From a bacterium (GTDB lineage: Bacteria; Patescibacteriota; Minisyncoccia; Minisyncoccales; CG1-02-41-26), in contig JAUXAO010000001.1 in the NCBI GenBank assembly GCA_030619905.1, forward strand, positions 1 through 46,347: a stretch of DNA of 46,347 nt, read 5' to 3'. Below, piece after piece: positions 1,597 to 16,152 of the stretch (positions are counted from its first letter, which is position 1; each line of letters opens with the position of its first letter). A program made the translations under genes and the position numbers. The notes under the pieces were generated by a model. That model saw only the letters and a list, made by a program, of their open reading frames with translations. It was not told the DNA's origin and searched no databases.

Positions 1597-1910
1597 CTCC
1601 GCGGGTAGGATTCGAACCTACAACCTAGTGCTTACATCTTGTCCTAATGTTTCCAATAGGCATGGACTATATCATCACCCTTCTTGTATAAAGACTAGGG
1701 TGCGAGGCGCTTCCCCCGGCATAAATCCGGGGTACTCCATTATAGGATAGTCTCTGAACCTTCCCTAAAAATCAATTAGGACTTGGCTGCGGATTACCAT
1801 TTCCTTTTAGGAATTAGGCTTCCCGCAATTCACCTCGTTTTTCAATCCCGATTTCTCGAGAAAGCTGCAAATTTTCACAGGCACCCGCGCTACCATTGCG
1901 CCACCGCGGA
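1597..1910 (-). tRNA. tRNA-Asn(GUU), split by a group I intron (exons 1910-1877 and 1634-1597)
   Basis: Joined exons fold as a tRNA: acceptor TCCGCGG/CCGCGGA, D-arm GCGC/GCGC, anticodon stem GGTGC/GCACT with loop CTGT^TAA, T-arm GTAGG-TTCGAAT-CCTAC, discriminator G; CCA not encoded. Confidence 0.93.
1635..1876 (-). ncRNA. Group I self-splicing intron (242 nt, no ORF) in the tRNA-Asn anticodon
   Basis: Core elements on the minus strand: P AATTGCGGGAA (1830-1820), Q AATCCGCAGC (1795-1786), R GTTCAGAGACTA (1759-1748), S ATGATATAGTCC (1675-1664). 5' exon ends in U, paired U.G in P1 (CUGU/GCAG); terminal omega-G at 1635. Confidence 0.93.
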
Positions 1911-1951
1911 ATATAATTATATTACTCTATTTTTAATATATTTTCAACTAA

Positions 1952-3190
1952 TTAGTAATCTTTTAATTTTTTCAGACCTTCCAGCTTGCGGATTCTCTCC
2001 AAAGCTTTGGCTTGAATCTGACGAATTCTTTCTCTGGTCACTCCAAACACCTTTCCTACTTCTTCTAAAGTATGAGTAACTCCATCTTCTAAGCCAAATC
2101 TCATTGCTAAAATCTTTTTCTCGCGTGGAGTCAATTCGGCTGAGATTTCCTCTAATCTTTCTTTTAAAAGATTGCGGGCCGCCATTGTCAATGGAGAAGG
2201 AGTTTTCAAATCTTCAATAAATTCGGCTAAAACGCTATCTTTATTATCTTCCCCAACCGGTGTTTCCAGAGAAACCGCTTTTTGTTTAATCTGCATTATA
2301 TGATGGACTTTTTCCACTTCAATCCCCATTTCAGCAGCAATTTCTTCTGGAAGAGGGTCGCGGCCTAAACTTTGTAAAAGCTTTCTTTTTGCTTTCTCAT
2401 ATTTAGAAATTGTTTCTATCATATGAACCGGAATTCGAATAGTTCTGGCCTGGTCAGCAATAGCTCTTGTAACTGCCTGTCTTATCCACCAAGTAGCGTA
2501 AGTGGAAAACTTGTATCCCTTCCGCCAGTCAAATTTCTCTACAGCTCGGAAAAGTCCTAAGTTTCCTTCTTGAATCAAGTCTAATAAAGTTAAATTCCGT
2601 GAACGACCAACATATCTTTTAGCTATAGAAACTACTAATCGTAAATTGGCTTTAGTCAAAATCTTCTTAGCCTCCTCGTCCCCTTTCTCAATTCTTTTAG
2701 CTAATTCTTTCTCTTCACGAGCCGATATCATTGAAGTTCTCCCAATTTCTTTTAAATACATTCGAATTGAATCAATTCTTGGACCAACTAAGGCTTTTTT
2801 AGTTTTTTCGTTTTTATCTTTTATCTCTAAAAATCCTTTTTTCTCTTTTATTTCAATACCTTTGTTTTCCAAATCTTGATAAAGTTTTTCCAAACCTTTA
2901 ATGTCTTTTTCTAAATTAGGAAAAAAACTCAAAACCTCATTCAAGGTAATGAAACCACGGTTCTTTCCTTTTCTAAAAAGCTCTTTAATTTTTTCCGGTT
3001 GGAAAACAGGAGAACGCCGTTTAGAAAAAGGTTTCAAAATAGCGACTTTTCTCCTTTTCTTTATCATTCTTTTTTTCGCTTTAATCTTTCTTGGCCGACT
3101 CTTTCTTGTTTTAGTTTTTTTAGGCCGATTCTTTCTTTTCTTTATTATCTTCTTTATTTTCTTTGGTTTTGACTGTTTTTTTCTTGGCAT
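1952..3190 (-). CDS. rpoD: RNA polymerase primary sigma factor (sigma70/SigA)
   Basis: [53 protein letters not shown]; downstream of dnaG. Confidence 0.97.
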
Positions 3191-11113: not shown

Positions 11114-13144
11114 TTGATAGAAAAATGTAAAAATGTTTTCCCTCCAGAAAAGAGGAATCGGTTTTTTAATTTTCTAAGATTACGGAAAAAAGTTTATCTG
11201 CCAATATTTATTGGCTTATTGCTGATTTTGGGAGTTCTGGGGATAAATTATTATTTTAAAAATACTGAGGTTCAGCCAGGTTTTGGTGGCACTTTCCGAG
11301 AAGGAGTAATCGGTCAGCCAAGATTTATTAATCCCCTTTATCTCTCAGGCAATGATATTGATAGAGATTTGGTTGAACTGTTGTTTTCCGGACTAATGAA
11401 ATACGATGAAAACGGTAAAATAGTGAAAGATTTAGCTGATGATTTAGAAATCAAAGAAGAAGGTGAGATTTATGAAATTAAGTTAAAGGAAAATATATTC
11501 TGGCACGACGGAGAATTGCTAACTGCTAATGATGTAGTTTTCACTATAAATTTATTACAAAATCCTGAGTATAAAAGCTCTTTGGCAATAAAATGGTCAG
11601 GAGTAAGTGTTGAAAAATTATCAGACAGGGTTGTTCAGTTTAGATTACAAAAATCTTATTCTGGCTTTTTAGAGACATTAACTGAAAAAATAATACCTAA
11701 GCATATTTTCAAAGATATACCTCCCAAAAACCTCCCATGGACCCTGAGTTCCAAAGAATATTTAAATAAAGAATGTTTGATTGGTTCCGGTCCATTTCAA
11801 TTCAAACAATTAGATCAGGATAACAAATCCGGTTATATAAAATCTCTAACATTAACAAGGAATGAAGATTATTTTGTTAAAAAGCCATTCATTTCTCAAA
11901 TCTCTTTTCATTTTTTCAACAATAAAGAAGATTTGTTAGAATCAGTTTCTCAGGGAAAAATTGATGGTTTCTTAATTTCCGACCCCAATGATCTAGAAAC
12001 TTTCTCTGATGAAACATTTAAAATCCTTGAACTTTCTCTACCCAGATATTTTGCAGTTTTCTTTAATCAAGATCCTCCTGAAGATAAATCAAAACTCTTA
12101 ACTTCAAAAGGAGTAAGAGAAGCTTTAAATTATGCCATTAACAAAGAAGAAATTCTGAAAGAGGTTGTTCTGGAAAAAGGCAAAGTGGTTGATTCCCCTA
12201 TTTTGCCGGATTTCTATGGATTTGATCCTCCATCAAAAATTTATGAATTTGATAAAGAGAAAGCAGAACAAATCTTAGAACAAGCTGGATTCAAATATAT
12301 TGATGAGAGCGGAATAAGGAAAAAAATAATTTCTGAAAAGCCTACTTTTTCTTTTACCAAGACCCTTCGATATGGAAGTAGAGGCAATGAAGTAACCCAG
12401 CTTCAAAAATGCTTGGCTAATCCATCAGCTGGAGGACCGGAAATTTATCCTAGCGGTAAAGTTACAGGATATTTCGGTAATGAAACAAGACAAGCTGTTA
12501 TTCTCTTCCAGGAAAAATACAAAGAGGATGTTCTTGCTCCATTTGGTTTAGAAAAAGGAACAGGACAAGTGAAGAGCAAGACAAGAGAAAAACTTAATGA
12601 GCTTTGCTTTCCTCAAAAAGAAGAAATTCTGCCTTTACAATTTTCTCTAGTAACAGTAAATAAACCTTTGATGGTTGAAATCTCCCAACTTTTACAAAAA
12701 AATTGGAAAGAAGTAGGAGCCAGTGTTCAGATTAAATTCGAAGCCATTTCCACTATAGAAACCGATATTATCAAACCCAGAGATTTTGAAGCCCTCTTAT
12801 TCGGAGAAGTTCTCAATTCATTACCAGACCCCTTCCCTTTCTGGCACTCAAGCCAAAAACAAAGTCCGGGTCTTAATCTAGTAAGTTATGAAAACAAAAA
12901 GACTGACAAGTTATTGGAAGAAGCCCGGGCAACTTTAGATAATTCTCTAAGAAGAGAAAAATTAGAAGAATTCCAAAACCTTTTAATTGAAGATATACCT
13001 TGCCTATTCTTACTAAGACCAGATTTGGTTTATTTTACCTCTAAAAAAGTTAATGGACAGATTGTAGAAAAAATTATTGAACCATCAAAAAGATTCGTCA
13101 GTATAGAAAATTGGTATATTAGAACTCGCCGAGTCTGGAAATAA
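11114..13144 (+). CDS. Family 5 (peptide/nickel) ABC substrate-binding protein with an inserted peptidoglycan-binding domain; TTG start uncertain
   Basis: GGTFREGVIG, LFSGL, FWHDGELLTANDVVFT, IGSGPF, VREALNYAINK; N-terminal TM anchor. Confidence 0.88.
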   Translation: MIEKCKNVFPPEKRNRFFNFLRLRKKVYLPIFIGLLLILGVLGINYYFKNTEVQPGFGGTFREGVIGQPRFINPLYLSGNDIDRDLVELLFSGLMKYDENGKIVKDLADDLEIKEEGEIYEIKLKENIFWHDGELLTANDVVFTINLLQNPEYKSSLAIKWSGVSVEKLSDRVVQFRLQKSYSGFLETLTEKIIPKHIFKDIPPKNLPWTLSSKEYLNKECLIGSGPFQFKQLDQDNKSGYIKSLTLTRNEDYFVKKPFISQISFHFFNNKEDLLESVSQGKIDGFLISDPNDLETFSDETFKILELSLPRYFAVFFNQDPPEDKSKLLTSKGVREALNYAINKEEILKEVVLEKGKVVDSPILPDFYGFDPPSKIYEFDKEKAEQILEQAGFKYIDESGIRKKIISEKPTFSFTKTLRYGSRGNEVTQLQKCLANPSAGGPEIYPSGKVTGYFGNETRQAVILFQEKYKEDVLAPFGLEKGTGQVKSKTREKLNELCFPQKEEILPLQFSLVTVNKPLMVEISQLLQKNWKEVGASVQIKFEAISTIETDIIKPRDFEALLFGEVLNSLPDPFPFWHSSQKQSPGLNLVSYENKKTDKLLEEARATLDNSLRREKLEEFQNLLIEDIPCLFLLRPDLVYFTSKKVNGQIVEKIIEPSKRFVSIENWYIRTRRVWK

Positions 13145-13148
13145 AATT

Positions 13149-13709
13149 ATGGATATTAGATTTTTGGATGATATGAAAAAGGTGCTCTATGATAAGAAAT
13201 GGGCCAAAAATGCCCCTAATTTTGAGCTTTATTATATGGATCGGGGCCTGAAAAGAAAAAAAGAGTTGAGATATGATATCACCACTATTCCTCCTAGAAT
13301 GCTTGGAAAAGAATTTGTTAAAACAAAGGGTCATGAGCATTTAGGCGATTTTGGAGAAATTTATATTGTTTTAGAGGGACAAGGAATGTATTTAATGCAA
13401 AAATACAAAAAAGGAAAAATAGAAGATGTTTATGCAGTTAAAGCAAAGAAAGGCGACGTGATTGTTATTCCACCTTATTACAGCCACGTTACTATAAATC
13501 CATCAAACAAGACTTTGAAAATGGCGAACTGGATATCTGACAAATGTAAATCCTGTTATGATTTATTTGAAAAAAAACAAGGTGCTTGTTATTATTTTAC
13601 AAAATCTGGCTGGATAAAAAATAAAAAATACAAGAATTTGCCTAAATTGCGTTTTGAAAAACCTCTAAAGAAAACACCCAAAAATTTAGATTTCTTAGGG
13701 GGAGAATAA
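13149..13709 (+). CDS. Cupin-type (archaeal-like) glucose-6-phosphate isomerase
   Basis: LRYDIT, EFVKTKGHEH, EIYIVLEG, IPPYYSHVTIN. Confidence 0.85.
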   Translation: MDIRFLDDMKKVLYDKKWAKNAPNFELYYMDRGLKRKKELRYDITTIPPRMLGKEFVKTKGHEHLGDFGEIYIVLEGQGMYLMQKYKKGKIEDVYAVKAKKGDVIVIPPYYSHVTINPSNKTLKMANWISDKCKSCYDLFEKKQGACYYFTKSGWIKNKKYKNLPKLRFEKPLKKTPKNLDFLGGE

Positions 13710-13712
13710 ATT

Positions 13713-13739
13713 GCAAGTACGGTGAAGCTGAAAAGCATA
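13713..13739 (+). pseudogene. Decayed remnant of a tRNA-Leu 5' half
   Basis: 15/27 ungapped identity to the first 27 nt of the tRNA-Leu at 14384; 10 of 12 mismatches are transitions; D-stem GTG/CAT can still pair. Confidence 0.5.
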
Positions 13740-13752
13740 AAATTTCTATTCT

Positions 13753-14382
13753 ATGAAACCAAAAGGCAAAAAAGTTCAATGGAGCCTTGAAATTGCTTAC
13801 GCTGTAGGATTAATTACTACTGATGGCAGTTTATCTATTAACAAGAGAACTATCGATTTTACTTCTAAAGACAAGGAATTAGTTAGAACATTCCGAAAGT
13901 GCCTCAACTTGAAAAATAAAATCGGTTATAAATACTCATCAAAAGAAAAGATAAGAAAGTATTGGCGAGTGCAATTTGGTAACATTATCTTTTATAAATG
14001 GCTACTTAAGATTGGACTAATGCCAAATAAGACAAAAAGAATTGGTTTGCTCAGAATCCCTAACAGATATTTCTTTGACTTTTTACGAGGTCATTTAGAT
14101 GGGGACGGATGTATACGTAAATTTCAGGACCCAGTTTACCCAAATAGTCAAAGATTATATACTATTTTTTATTCAGCAAGTTTTAATCATTTAAAATGGT
14201 TACAACAAAAAATAAATTTTTTATTAAATATTCATGGTTTTATTGGGCCTACAACTAGAGAGTTTCGACTAACTTTTGCAAAAAAAGAATCTCTAAGACT
14301 ATTACCTAAAATCTATCCCAGTCGAGATATTCCTTATCTTAAAAGAAAATATAAAAAAATAGAATCATTATTGAGTAATTAA
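13753..14382 (+). CDS. Free-standing two-motif LAGLIDADG homing endonuclease
   Basis: Motif 1 AYAVGLITTDG, motif 2 FLRGHLDGDG, both with the acidic catalytic residue; GLMPNKT and C-terminal LKRK; very basic. Confidence 0.9.
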   Translation: MKPKGKKVQWSLEIAYAVGLITTDGSLSINKRTIDFTSKDKELVRTFRKCLNLKNKIGYKYSSKEKIRKYWRVQFGNIIFYKWLLKIGLMPNKTKRIGLLRIPNRYFFDFLRGHLDGDGCIRKFQDPVYPNSQRLYTIFYSASFNHLKWLQQKINFLLNIHGFIGPTTREFRLTFAKKESLRLLPKIYPSRDIPYLKRKYKKIESLLSN

Positions 14383-14383
14383 A

Positions 14384-14467
14384 GCCGGGGTGATGAAACC
14401 GGGAAACATGCATGGTTCAGAACCATGTGTCCTTAAGGGCTTGTGGGTTCGAATCCCACCCCCGGCA
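14384..14467 (+). tRNA. tRNA-Leu(CAG)
   Basis: Acceptor GCCGGGG/CCCCGGC, anticodon stem CATGG/CCATG with loop TTCAGAA, long variable arm, GTGGG-TTCGAAT-CCCAC, A73. Confidence 0.93.
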
Positions 14468-14469
14468 CT

Positions 14470-16152
14470 ATGAAAAAAATTCAAAAACAAGCAAACCTTC
14501 GCATTATCCCATTAGGCGGACTTGGCGAAGTTGGACTTAATATGATACTCCTTGAATACAAAGGGAAGATTTTGATTATGGATATGGGACTTGGTTTCCC
14601 TGGAGAAAATATGCCCGGGATTGACTGCATTATTCCAAACATTTCCTACCTCAAAGGAAAATCAAAAAACATTTTAGGGGCAATTCTTACCCATGGGCAT
14701 TATGACCATATTGGAGCTATCCCATATATTCTCCCTAAAATAGGCTCAATTCTCATGTATGCCAGTCCTCTGGCTAAGGGAATAATTTTAAACAGACAGG
14801 AAGATTTTCCGAATCAGCCAAAACTCAATATAAGGGAAATAACAGATAATTTTAAAGTTAAATTAGGGCCTTTTCAGATTGAATTTTTCCGGCAGAATCA
14901 CAATATCCCAGATAATTTCGGTTTTGTCATCAACACTCCCGTTGGAAATATTGTTCATACTTCTGACTTTAAATTTGATAAATCACCTGTTAATGAACCG
15001 CCGACTAATTTTGAGAAACTAAAAAGAATTGGCCAACAAGGTATTTTACTCTTGATGTCTGAGTCCACAGGAGCAGAAGAAGAAGGACATTCACGTTCCG
15101 AAAAAACAATTTTTGAAAACTTAGACAAAATTTTCAAGGAACCCAGAGGTAGGATTATAGCCGCTTCTTTTGCTTCTCTTATTAATAGAATCCAACAATT
15201 AATCACCCTTTCGGAAAAGCATGGCAGGAAAGTAGCTATTGAAGGACATAGCATGAAGACTAATATTGAAATTGCTCAAACATTGAAAAAGATTAAAGTA
15301 AAAAAGGGAACTTTTATAAGCATTAAAGAGATTCATAAATTTCCCGATTCAAAGATAACCGTGATTTGTACCGGCGCTCAAGGGGAAGAAAGGGCTGTTT
15401 TTATGAGAATTGCCAACCGAGAACATAAAGTCATCCGAATCAAAAAAGGAGACGCAGTTATTTTTTCCTCCTCGGTGGTCCCGGGAAACGAGAGAAGCGT
15501 TCAGTTCTTAAAAGATGAGTTTCATCGTCAGGGAGCTAAAGTTTTTCATTACAAAATGATGGATATCCATGCCTCAGGACATGCCCAAGAGGAAGAATTA
15601 AAAGAAATGATCAGGATTATGAAGCCAAAATTTTTTCTCCCTATTTATGGTCAGTATTCAATGCTGGTAAGACATGCTGAATTAGCTGAAGATGAAGGAA
15701 TTCCCAAAGAAAATATATTAGTTGTTGAAAACGGAAGTATTATAAATTTAAATCAAAGAAAAATCTTTAAAGAAAAAGGAAAGGTCCCTTCTAATTATGT
15801 AATGGTTGATGGTTTAGGAGTCGGAGATGTGGGAGAAGTAGTTTTAAGAGACAGACAGAATTTGGCTAGAGACGGAATGTTTGTTATTGTAGTAATAGTA
15901 GATAGACAAGCAGGAAAGGTTAAGGGTTCTCCAGATATAATATCAAGAGGATTTGTTTATTTAAGAGAATCAAAACAATTACTGAAAGAAACCAGACAAC
16001 GAGTAATAAGAATTGTTGACATAGCAGCTGGTTCAGGTGGAGCAGTTAACTGGACCTATGTTAAGGACGAATTGAGAAACAAGATTGGTAAGTTTCTTTT
16101 TTCCAAAACAAAAAGAAGACCAATGGTCCTTCCCGTGGTCATAGAAGTATAA
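14470..16152 (+). CDS. rnj: Ribonuclease J (ATG start at 14470)
   Basis: PLGGLGEVGLN, THGHYDHIG, HTSDFK, CTGAQGE, HASGH, SRGFVY, RRPMVLP. Confidence 0.95.
   Translation: MKKIQKQANLRIIPLGGLGEVGLNMILLEYKGKILIMDMGLGFPGENMPGIDCIIPNISYLKGKSKNILGAILTHGHYDHIGAIPYILPKIGSILMYASPLAKGIILNRQEDFPNQPKLNIREITDNFKVKLGPFQIEFFRQNHNIPDNFGFVINTPVGNIVHTSDFKFDKSPVNEPPTNFEKLKRIGQQGILLLMSESTGAEEEGHSRSEKTIFENLDKIFKEPRGRIIAASFASLINRIQQLITLSEKHGRKVAIEGHSMKTNIEIAQTLKKIKVKKGTFISIKEIHKFPDSKITVICTGAQGEERAVFMRIANREHKVIRIKKGDAVIFSSSVVPGNERSVQFLKDEFHRQGAKVFHYKMMDIHASGHAQEEELKEMIRIMKPKFFLPIYGQYSMLVRHAELAEDEGIPKENILVVENGSIINLNQRKIFKEKGKVPSNYVMVDGLGVGDVGEVVLRDRQNLARDGMFVIVVIVDRQAGKVKGSPDIISRGFVYLRESKQLLKETRQRVIRIVDIAAGSGGAVNWTYVKDELRNKIGKFLFSKTKRRPMVLPVVIEV

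Follow-up and report, generated by a model that had tools for sequence, protein, structure and literature searches.

The stretch of DNA analysed here, which we call the window, consists of positions 1 to 46,347 of contig C7 in a 617-kb genome (32% G+C, 99.9% complete). The organism is presumably of the candidate phyla radiation (CPR)/Patescibacteria type, judging by its genome size and the named hosts of the nuclease homologues described below. Between pgi and a tRNA-Leu(CAG) gene it carries what is probably a free-standing homing endonuclease gene of the LAGLIDADG type, predicted to encode an active enzyme (Table 1). The stop codon TAA of this gene occupies 14380-14382 and leaves a gap of one nucleotide (nt) to the tRNA, which is the sole CAG isoacceptor in the tRNA list of the genome. 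We find that the nuclease gene has been inserted into a pgi - tRNA-Leu(CAG) - rnj locus that is conserved in other respects, and we consider it probable that it arrived as part of a small mobile cassette that also holds a fragment resembling the 5' part of tRNA-Leu. Below, G000 denotes the genome of the window and other G numbers the genomes of relatives, while L numbers stand for loci and X numbers for public sequencing runs.

Table 1. Positions of the features discussed, in window coordinates (aa, amino acids; ORF, open reading frame)
Feature	Position	Strand	Support or remark
pgi (cupin-type glucose-6-phosphate isomerase), left flank of the insertion	13149..13709	+	Pfam PF06560, E 1.3e-35
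Inserted segment: spacer, tRNA-like fragment, leader and nuclease gene	13710..14383	+	Missing from empty alleles
Probable decayed tRNA-Leu 5' fragment (acceptor 5' strand and D arm)	13713..13739	+	Weak taken alone
TAAAAT, putative -10 box of the nuclease gene, 11 nt 5' of the ATG	13736..13741	+	Proposed from reading the sequence
Gene for a probable free-standing, single-chain LAGLIDADG homing endonuclease, 209 aa	13753..14382	+	Pfam, alignment, fold model
Intact tRNA-Leu(CAG)	14384..14468	+	ARAGORN; Rfam 55.6 bits
rnj (RNase J), right flank; ATG 1-2 nt past the tRNA end	14470..16152	+	Pfam RNase J domains
ORF-less group I intron in the anticodon loop of tRNA-Asn(GTT)	1643-1975	-	Rfam 95 bits

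The nuclease gene and its insertion

The protein matches the Pfam family LAGLIDADG_3 (PF14528) in its N-terminal half only, at residues 14-67 (E-value 4.5e-9, 36.9 bits against a cut-off of 22.5). In an alignment of 11 sequences, the window protein and ten relatives, the catalytic residues D24 and D118 are invariant, with conservation also at G25, G117 and G119. The AlphaFold model of the 209-aa protein has a predicted local distance difference test score (pLDDT) of 90.1 and a predicted template modelling score (pTM) of 0.88, and it folds into two alpha-beta-beta-alpha-beta-beta-alpha halves. I-Tsp061I (2DCH) is both its top fold match in the PDB (E-value 7.7e-12, template modelling (TM) score 0.70) and the best match of the protein by sequence (E-value 9e-4, identity 19%). 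At E <= 0.001 the model has 140 PDB fold matches, led by I-Tsp061I, the bI3 maturase, E-DreI, I-AniI and I-SceI, and all those named among the matches listed have the LAGLIDADG fold (nucleases, maturase and WhiA).

Comparison of the window gene with its homologues at L132-L134, which are 68-73% identical, gives a ratio of nonsynonymous to synonymous substitution rates (dN/dS) of 0.10-0.19, and of 0.10-0.21 across all six pairs. The synonymous rate (dS) between the window gene and these three homologues exceeds 1.2. Together these values indicate that the protein is under selection and that neutral sites are saturated.

Start and stop codon of the reading frame both lie between pgi and the tRNA; the frame is not embedded in a host protein and there is no intein. 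No group I or other intron was found near the gene, as Rfam at the gathering threshold reports nothing near it but the tRNA, and a permissive scan of 13500-14600 (E up to 5) adds chance-level matches only. A consensus scan of 12900-14700 gave no terminator. A first-pass annotation, made from the letters of this DNA, had described a gene with both catalytic aspartates, no intein or group I core and a stop 1 nt from an intact tRNA, and this description is confirmed in full.

That the gene was inserted is evident from alleles that lack it. RNase J loci were recovered from 37 of the 38 family relatives, and 29 of these loci were fetched. None of the 29 holds the nuclease gene; 23 have tRNA-Leu(CAG) next to rnj, and in 11 there is a pgi gene upstream. 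In L023, L024, L026, L027 and L029 the pgi stop is found 0-6 nt before the tRNA.

Empty and occupied forms also occur in public sequencing runs, whose contigs represent metagenome relatives at 85% likeness or more and are not proven to come from one population. A contig from X4 joins 13697 to 14384 with 11 other letters between, corresponding to a variant pgi end, its stop and 2 nt, and a contig from X1 joins 13673 to 14380 with 30 letters between. The occupied form is present in X1 too, as a 774-nt contig over 13640-14413 with 30 differences (96% identical). X2 contains an identical 251-nt piece of the occupied form as well as a pgi end abutting 14382. Low or absent contig cover over 13710-14357 in X3 and X4 was not counted as evidence, the joining contig of X4 excepted.

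Presence and absence at matched loci are also seen between G016 (occupied) and G015 (empty). The distribution of homologues is sporadic (13 of 38 family genomes). Degenerate copies occur in G029, G017 and G045. The first-pass annotation had proposed, from the occupied form, an element apparently inserted into tRNA-Leu; that an insertion took place at this locus is borne out by the empty pgi - tRNA-Leu - rnj alleles.

A nuclease family paired with tRNA-Leu genes

A scan of species genomes, using one genome per species and a single peptide pattern, yielded 511 relatives of the window protein, and we inspected the best 80 (43-55% identical). Seventy of these 80 lie directly upstream of a tRNA-Leu gene on the same strand (56 GAG, 11 CAG, 2 AAG and 1 TAG). 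The median gap is 0.5 nt, and in 33 of the 70 the frame enters the tRNA, by 10-45 nt. Six more homologues lie 2-10 nt downstream of tRNA-Leu(CAA), and two of the four exceptions reach the edge of their contig. Of 22 homologues from the metagenome set, 20 are directly followed by tRNA-Leu, the other two being cut by contig ends. That homologues should abut tRNA genes had been named in the first-pass annotation as a check on its proposal, and they do so with great regularity.

Among the family relatives the gene stands hard against a tRNA in 14 of 18 fetched homologue loci. A group of relatives with 44-50% identity is found at tRNA-Leu(CAA or TAG), a 35% identical group between tRNA-Met and tRNA-Asp, and a 31-36% identical group at tRNA-Cys - tRNA-Leu(TAA). 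The 1.4-Mb genome G042, from which L088 was taken, has three copies of the family, each about 47% identical to the window protein.

We mapped the partner tRNA onto a quick maximum-likelihood tree of 95 proteins and found it strongly clustered, with 14 changes compared to a mean of 37.1 in shuffles and none of 200 shuffles as low. In this tree the window gene pairs with L132 in a CAG clade that includes rows from Chloroflexota and Planctomycetota alongside those from the CPR, and a second, separate CAG clade is nested among GAG rows. As far as sequences can tell, lineages of the family each keep to one tRNA-Leu isoacceptor gene, and the cross-phylum clades point to transfer between host lineages.

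The genome of the window contains a paralogue, 35% identical to the window nuclease, directly downstream of tRNA-Cys - tRNA-Leu(TAA) (G000:C7:62485-63125, minus strand; L003:3360-4126). It is frameshifted into frames of 182 aa and 73 aa, where L011, L013 and L019 have one protein of 247-267 aa, and we read it as a decaying copy. Inspection by eye downstream of nuclease genes that follow tRNA-Leu(CAA) or tRNA-Leu(TAA) revealed no 3' fragments.

Several of these observations argue against the possibility that the nuclease is a domesticated, immobile LAGLIDADG protein kept by the host as a beneficial DNA-binding regulator or processing factor for tRNA-Leu expression. Both catalytic aspartates are invariant, the homologue is limited to 13 of 38 family genomes and is missing from all 29 rnj loci of relatives, occupied and empty forms are both present in environmental runs, and the clades that cross phyla indicate transfer. 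The frameshifted paralogue in the same genome and the degenerate copies in G029, G017 and G045 argue in the same direction. Domestication would account for the purifying selection and for the constant position before tRNA-Leu across phyla; a conserved tRNA-like piece over the gene's own promoter could be an operator, and LAGLIDADG folds have been recruited as regulators and maturases, with WhiA and the bI3 maturase among the fold matches here. On balance we regard it as very unlikely.

An alternative offered in the first-pass annotation was that the nuclease mobilises an ORF-less intron in trans, for example the group I intron of tRNA-Asn, which is present in the same window. The tRNA-Asn(GTT) split by this intron was missed by ARAGORN and is the genome's only tRNA-Asn. 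Trans-homing is reported for the free-standing T4 nuclease mobE (PMC2790892). According to the hit coordinates, family genomes differ in whether they have the intron: at least five relatives without a nuclease homologue have it (G001, G034, G035, G036 and G037), and the tRNA-Asn of three relatives with a homologue is intron-less (G021, G023 and G028). The constant partner of the family, moreover, is tRNA-Leu and not tRNA-Asn. We give mobilisation of this intron next to no credence.

tRNA-like fragments and the resident tRNA

Upstream of the nuclease gene, 13713-13739 is identical to the first 27 nt of the resident tRNA (14384-14410) at 15 of 27 positions, and 10 of the 12 differences are transitions. 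This reproduces the alignment given in the first-pass annotation. Its significance against shuffles held in part: P is 0.002 in the fixed register and 0.006 when the match is tied to the tRNA 5' end but may fall anywhere in the intergenic stretch, while it is 0.16 in any register, and a search by nhmmer with a tRNA-Leu 5'-half profile missed the fragment.

We generated a weight matrix, independent of the window tRNA, from 13 distinct 5' 27-mers of tRNA-Leu(CAG) genes in nuclease-free relatives. By this matrix the register starting at 13713 ranks among the top 0.039% of the genome's 1.23 million 27-mers, 485 of which reach its score. The same register is the best of 12 after the pgi stop, by at least 16 bits (shuffle P 0.0012; approximately P 0.005 after correction).

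By itself the 27-nt match is modest and only marginally significant, and its position is the best support for it. The match begins 3 nt past the pgi stop (TAA ATT), which is the exact tRNA start in the empty allele of G027 (L026). The closest homologues with readable upstream sequence, L132 (73%) and L133 (70%), show fragments that are unmistakable, in the corresponding position with respect to the ATG.

One explanation for the window match is that it arose by chance and that the 43-nt stretch before the ATG is just leader and promoter; the rest of the cassette explanation given below would still stand. Its log-odds score is slightly negative (-2.6 bits), a level that those 485 genome 27-mers reach. 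A local alignment of the upstream 130 nt against the resident tRNA finds nothing for the window (P 0.98), and gapped global alignment of the 43-nt intergenic stretch with the sequence upstream of L132, L133 and L134 gives P 0.98, 0.90 and 0.38, respectively. Typing of the acceptor stem against the alleles of relatives gives 10-16 of 27 to all types. Two occupied loci, L134 and L135, have no fragment. Chance fits poorly with the lead of this register over its competitors, with the exact coincidence with the L026 tRNA start and with the corresponding place of the fragments in L132 and L133. We consider it unlikely, though far from negligible.

Fragments are found across the nuclease family. The 5'-half profile scores at least 5 bits in 15 of 82 upstream segments, compared to none of 156 controls and none of 82 shuffles, and a pattern running from the D-loop to the anticodon is found in 37 of the 82, at least three of which are false matches in coding sequence. 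Many homologues thus carry the upstream 5' remnant that would be expected under the first-pass annotation. The fragments extend through the anticodon and end one base later. Their anticodon is that of the tRNA behind the gene at GAG sites, at L131 (CAG) and at L005 (TAG); the L111 fragment reads CAG too, and the only tRNA-Leu(CAG) there is on the opposite strand. Clear full-length fragments are present in L132, L133 and L005.

At 27 GAG loci we compared the cores of fragments and resident tRNAs. Identity is 0.78 between fragments, 0.72 between tRNAs and 0.71 between a fragment and its own tRNA, with the nucleases at 54%. Fragment cores measure 21 nt in 25 of the 27 loci and tRNA cores 20 nt in 24 of the 27. 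The GAG-site fragments also have a signature, CGC T A T, that is not found in the resident tRNAs. In the fragments of L058-L130, 10 nt separate the D-loop GGTAKA from the TT-anticodon, where real tRNA-Leu genes have 9, and this extra base is common to nearly all fragments, CAG and TAG sites included. The conservation at GAG sites and the shared extra base, despite nucleases that are 54% identical, do not fit with leftovers that decay freely. Judging by these sequences, the fragment is a constrained part of the cassette.

By reading, most loci have TATAAT or TAAAAT directly after the fragment, 4-9 nt before the ATG. A box so close to the start codon suggests a nearly leaderless transcript. A consensus promoter scan found no full promoter in 13710-13752 and did not call the TAAAAT of the window.

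The first-pass annotation explained the fragment differently. In its model the element brings the nuclease and a replacement 5' half, cuts the host tRNA gene near the D/anticodon arm, leaves the local half to decay and installs a resistant tRNA; in a variant of the model a whole replacement tRNA would be brought. The 5' half of the resident tRNA would then be foreign and the fragment native, and occupied loci can be compared with nuclease-free relatives on this point.

In genus g15, the flanks of G015 are near-identical to those of G016 and have no nuclease between them; its tRNA-Leu(TAG) is 80/83 identical to the resident tRNA of G016 and abuts the flank exactly where the G016 fragment begins. 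The G016 fragment itself agrees at 17 of 25 positions with the G015 tRNA and at 24 of 25 with the tRNA of G018, another species. In the genus of G040, by reading, the tRNA-Leu(GAG) of nuclease-free G047 has one difference from the resident tRNA of L065, and the L065 fragment has a different acceptor stem. For the window, the empty X4 contig runs into a tRNA that is at least 85% like the resident tRNA over 45 letters. The genus of G039 offers no nuclease-free sister for comparison, as G044 is occupied and G045 has a decayed copy.

In 3/3 pairs, a small sample, the resident tRNA corresponds to the nuclease-free allele along its whole length and so looks native or shared. The fragment is the differing part at both comparable loci (G016 and L065), the window fragment being too decayed to type. 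These results run counter to the replacement model, as does the conservation of the GAG fragments across phyla, with their extra base and their own signature. We found no cleavage-resistance signature in the window tRNA compared to 24 nuclease-free alleles, among which anticodon stems vary freely. The window tRNA is ordinary among these alleles and shares its acceptor, D stem and T arm with nuclease-free G024. The rebuilt, cleavage-resistant tRNA of the first-pass annotation thus finds no support here.

The replacement model does account for some of the data. A fragment that starts at the exact tRNA start of empty L026 is what it predicts, and the acceptor stems of fragment and resident tRNA differ in L005, L132, L133 and L065 as if one were foreign. 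In 33 of 70 loci the frame extends 10-45 nt into the 5' end of the tRNA, and those bases must therefore travel with the gene. With dS above 1.2 relative to L132-L134, a neutral inherited fragment would be scrambled, and clear fragments may therefore be recent local leftovers. Mobile ORFs of fungal mitochondria are reported to behave in this way (PMC3630166). Overall we judge the model improbable.

The genus g15 also provides a separate observation on tRNA alleles: four of its species (L155, L156, L159 and L005) have three quite different tRNA-Leu(TAG) acceptor stems next to a shared hairpin flank. Allele turnover of this tRNA seems to be fast in the genus.

A mobile cassette as the favoured explanation

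Taken together, the data are best explained, and we think probably so, by a mobile cassette of about 670 bp, made up of fragment, -10 box and nuclease gene, that entered between the pgi stop and the first base of tRNA-Leu(CAG). In this explanation, and with the same degree of confidence, the nuclease gene of such a cassette either terminates where an intact tRNA-Leu begins or continues into it, and the window fragment is old and degraded while the nuclease gene has been kept intact by selection.

We hypothesize that the nuclease cuts the tRNA-Leu gene DNA in genomes without the cassette and that a copy with the cassette acts as template when the break is repaired. In this process the tRNA-like fragment would serve as the left homology arm and the resident tRNA with the downstream gene as the right arm. 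With such arms the cassette could enter while the working tRNA stays whole throughout. The fragment would travel with the cassette under constraint, probably also as a promoter part or operator of the nuclease gene. Self-repression of this kind is known for I-TevI.

Besides the modest score of the window match and the failure of nhmmer and gapped alignment to recover it, several points weigh against this explanation. In addition to L134 and L135, eight occupied loci lack a fragment; in these an upstream gene, putatively rplS (a label read from its C-terminal residues), ends at the nuclease start. Since several occupied loci do without it, the fragment cannot be essential for persistence. The clear fragments with tRNA-like acceptors (L005, L132 and L133) could equally be fresh local leftovers, and the pattern in the three pairs could also arise if repair passes on a tRNA allele by itself and the nuclease gene stays behind. 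The presence of the same tRNA in empty relatives leaves the protection of the host copy unexplained; the cut site may span the tRNA 5' boundary, or the compared alleles may all be resistant. Finally, the protein tree comes from a quick search with SH-aLRT (approximate likelihood ratio test) support only.

It is conceivable that the cassette represents a more general way of life, a broader reading that we offer tentatively and regard as doubtful at present. A widespread class of bacterial selfish elements would live at an essential gene without intron or intein by means of a conserved mimic of the 5' part of the target tRNA. The mimic would act as homology arm, as promoter core for a nearly leaderless transcript and perhaps as operator for self-repression. 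The cassette would slide in just ahead of the tRNA and ride its transcription unit, and a second, unnamed family would do the same at many other tRNAs of the same genomes. If this is true, tRNA-Leu alleles would turn over and be exchanged rapidly across CPR, Chloroflexota and other phyla.

Known systems and other tRNA-flanking frames

To our knowledge, homing endonucleases have been thought to persist in essential genes only via introns or inteins, or else between genes in phages. Compared to these expected hiding places, the family described here is chromosomal, bacterial and tied to one tRNA class, with hundreds of members across phyla. We found no description of LAGLIDADG genes flanking tRNA-Leu in a literature search that left most subscription journals outside, and the tRNA-Leu-linked family is apparently undescribed. 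The closest working analogues appear to be SegB of phage T4 and the mobile ORFs (mORFs) of fungal mitochondria.

SegB is encoded by a free-standing GIY-YIG gene in a tRNA cluster (PMC2330249). Like the window gene it is free-standing, among tRNA genes and without intron or intein. Its recognition site is a conserved element of tRNA genes, and repair of the break carries it over together with the neighbouring tRNA genes (PMC2330249). Unlike the window gene, SegB has a GIY-YIG and not a LAGLIDADG fold and resides in a phage and not on a bacterial chromosome. It targets many tRNA genes, at their T-psi-C region and with relaxed specificity, and it is not known to have a tRNA fragment before the gene or a strict pairing with the tRNAs of one amino acid. 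Set beside Seg/Mob-type phage nucleases in general, the window gene is free-standing and intergenic, with a fold that is neither GIY-YIG nor HNH and a bacterial chromosome as its host.

Fungal mORFs are described for atp6 of Allomyces macrogynus and for atp6, atp9, cox2 and nad3 of Glomus (PMC3630166). There too an essential gene is invaded by a LAGLIDADG (or GIY-YIG) ORF with no intron involved, and a duplicated segment leaves a working and a displaced copy. The copy carried by a mORF is the 3' end of the gene and becomes the expressed one, the native end being displaced downstream. In the window element, by contrast, the duplicated piece is a 5' fragment and lies upstream, the working tRNA looks native in 3/3 pairs, and the fragment looks like a part of the cassette. 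The mORF arrangement of a foreign working segment and a native displaced segment was seen in none of these three pairs, a small sample.

I-Tsp061I (2DCH) and I-DmoI have the same fold and size as the window protein (about 200 aa, two motifs in one chain), I-Tsp061I at 19% identity. Both lie inside archaeal rRNA introns and rely on splicing, whereas the window gene is intergenic with no intron. Islands mobilised by integrases also use a tRNA gene as landing site and have a partial tRNA copy as a direct repeat at one end. Those islands depend on a tyrosine recombinase, duplicate the 3' end of the tRNA gene and are kilobases long. In CPR bacteria, LAGLIDADG genes occur in rRNA insertion sequences (PMC11270868). 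These share with the window gene the broad host group, the superfamily and the choice of conserved RNA genes, but are inside the rRNA genes. The words 'tRNA' and 'free-standing' have no occurrence in PMC11270868.

The family would make intron-less homing into an RNA gene readily testable and would supply a naturally occurring series of LAGLIDADG enzymes whose tRNA-gene targets are related yet distinct. It may also be one reason why tRNA alleles turn over fast in ultra-small bacteria. For annotation, caution is advised, as tRNA-like fragments beside such genes may be parts of a cassette and not random pseudogenes.

Other nuclease-like frames are found beside tRNA genes in the same genome, outside the window. 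An ORF of 226 aa with an N-terminal helix-turn-helix (HTH) and a single LAGLIDADG-like motif (..LYWAEG..) lies at G000:C7:60760-61437 on the plus strand (L003:1761-2441). It ends 1 nt before tRNA-Gly(GCC), and its sole Pfam match is a sub-threshold HTH. Its family is present in 25 of 38 relatives with up to five copies per genome, and a second copy (C3:146375-146797) is found beside tRNA-Thr(GGT). In 18 of 19 fetched loci the gene lies upstream of a same-strand tRNA, at distances, by reading, of about 8-100 nt. The partner tRNAs cover at least nine specificities: Gly, Arg, Met, Asn, Lys, Trp, Gln, Ala and Thr. This looks like a second, more promiscuous family of putative nucleases that flank tRNA genes.

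A 157-aa ORF with an HNH motif lies between tRNA-Arg(TCT) and tRNA-His (G000:C7:66578-67051, minus strand; L003:7579-8052). Its stop is 7 nt before tRNA-His, and its Pfam HNH matches are below the cut-offs. A further LAGLIDADG_3 match, at G000:C7:134242-134397 on the plus strand, falls within a 447-aa open frame and could be an intein or a fused form.

On the other side of the tRNA, the rnj start codon is found 0-2 nt past the tRNA-Leu 3' end in the window (14467-14472) and in the relatives L023, L026 and L037. Because the ATG abuts the tRNA, 3' processing of tRNA-Leu would yield an essentially leaderless rnj message.

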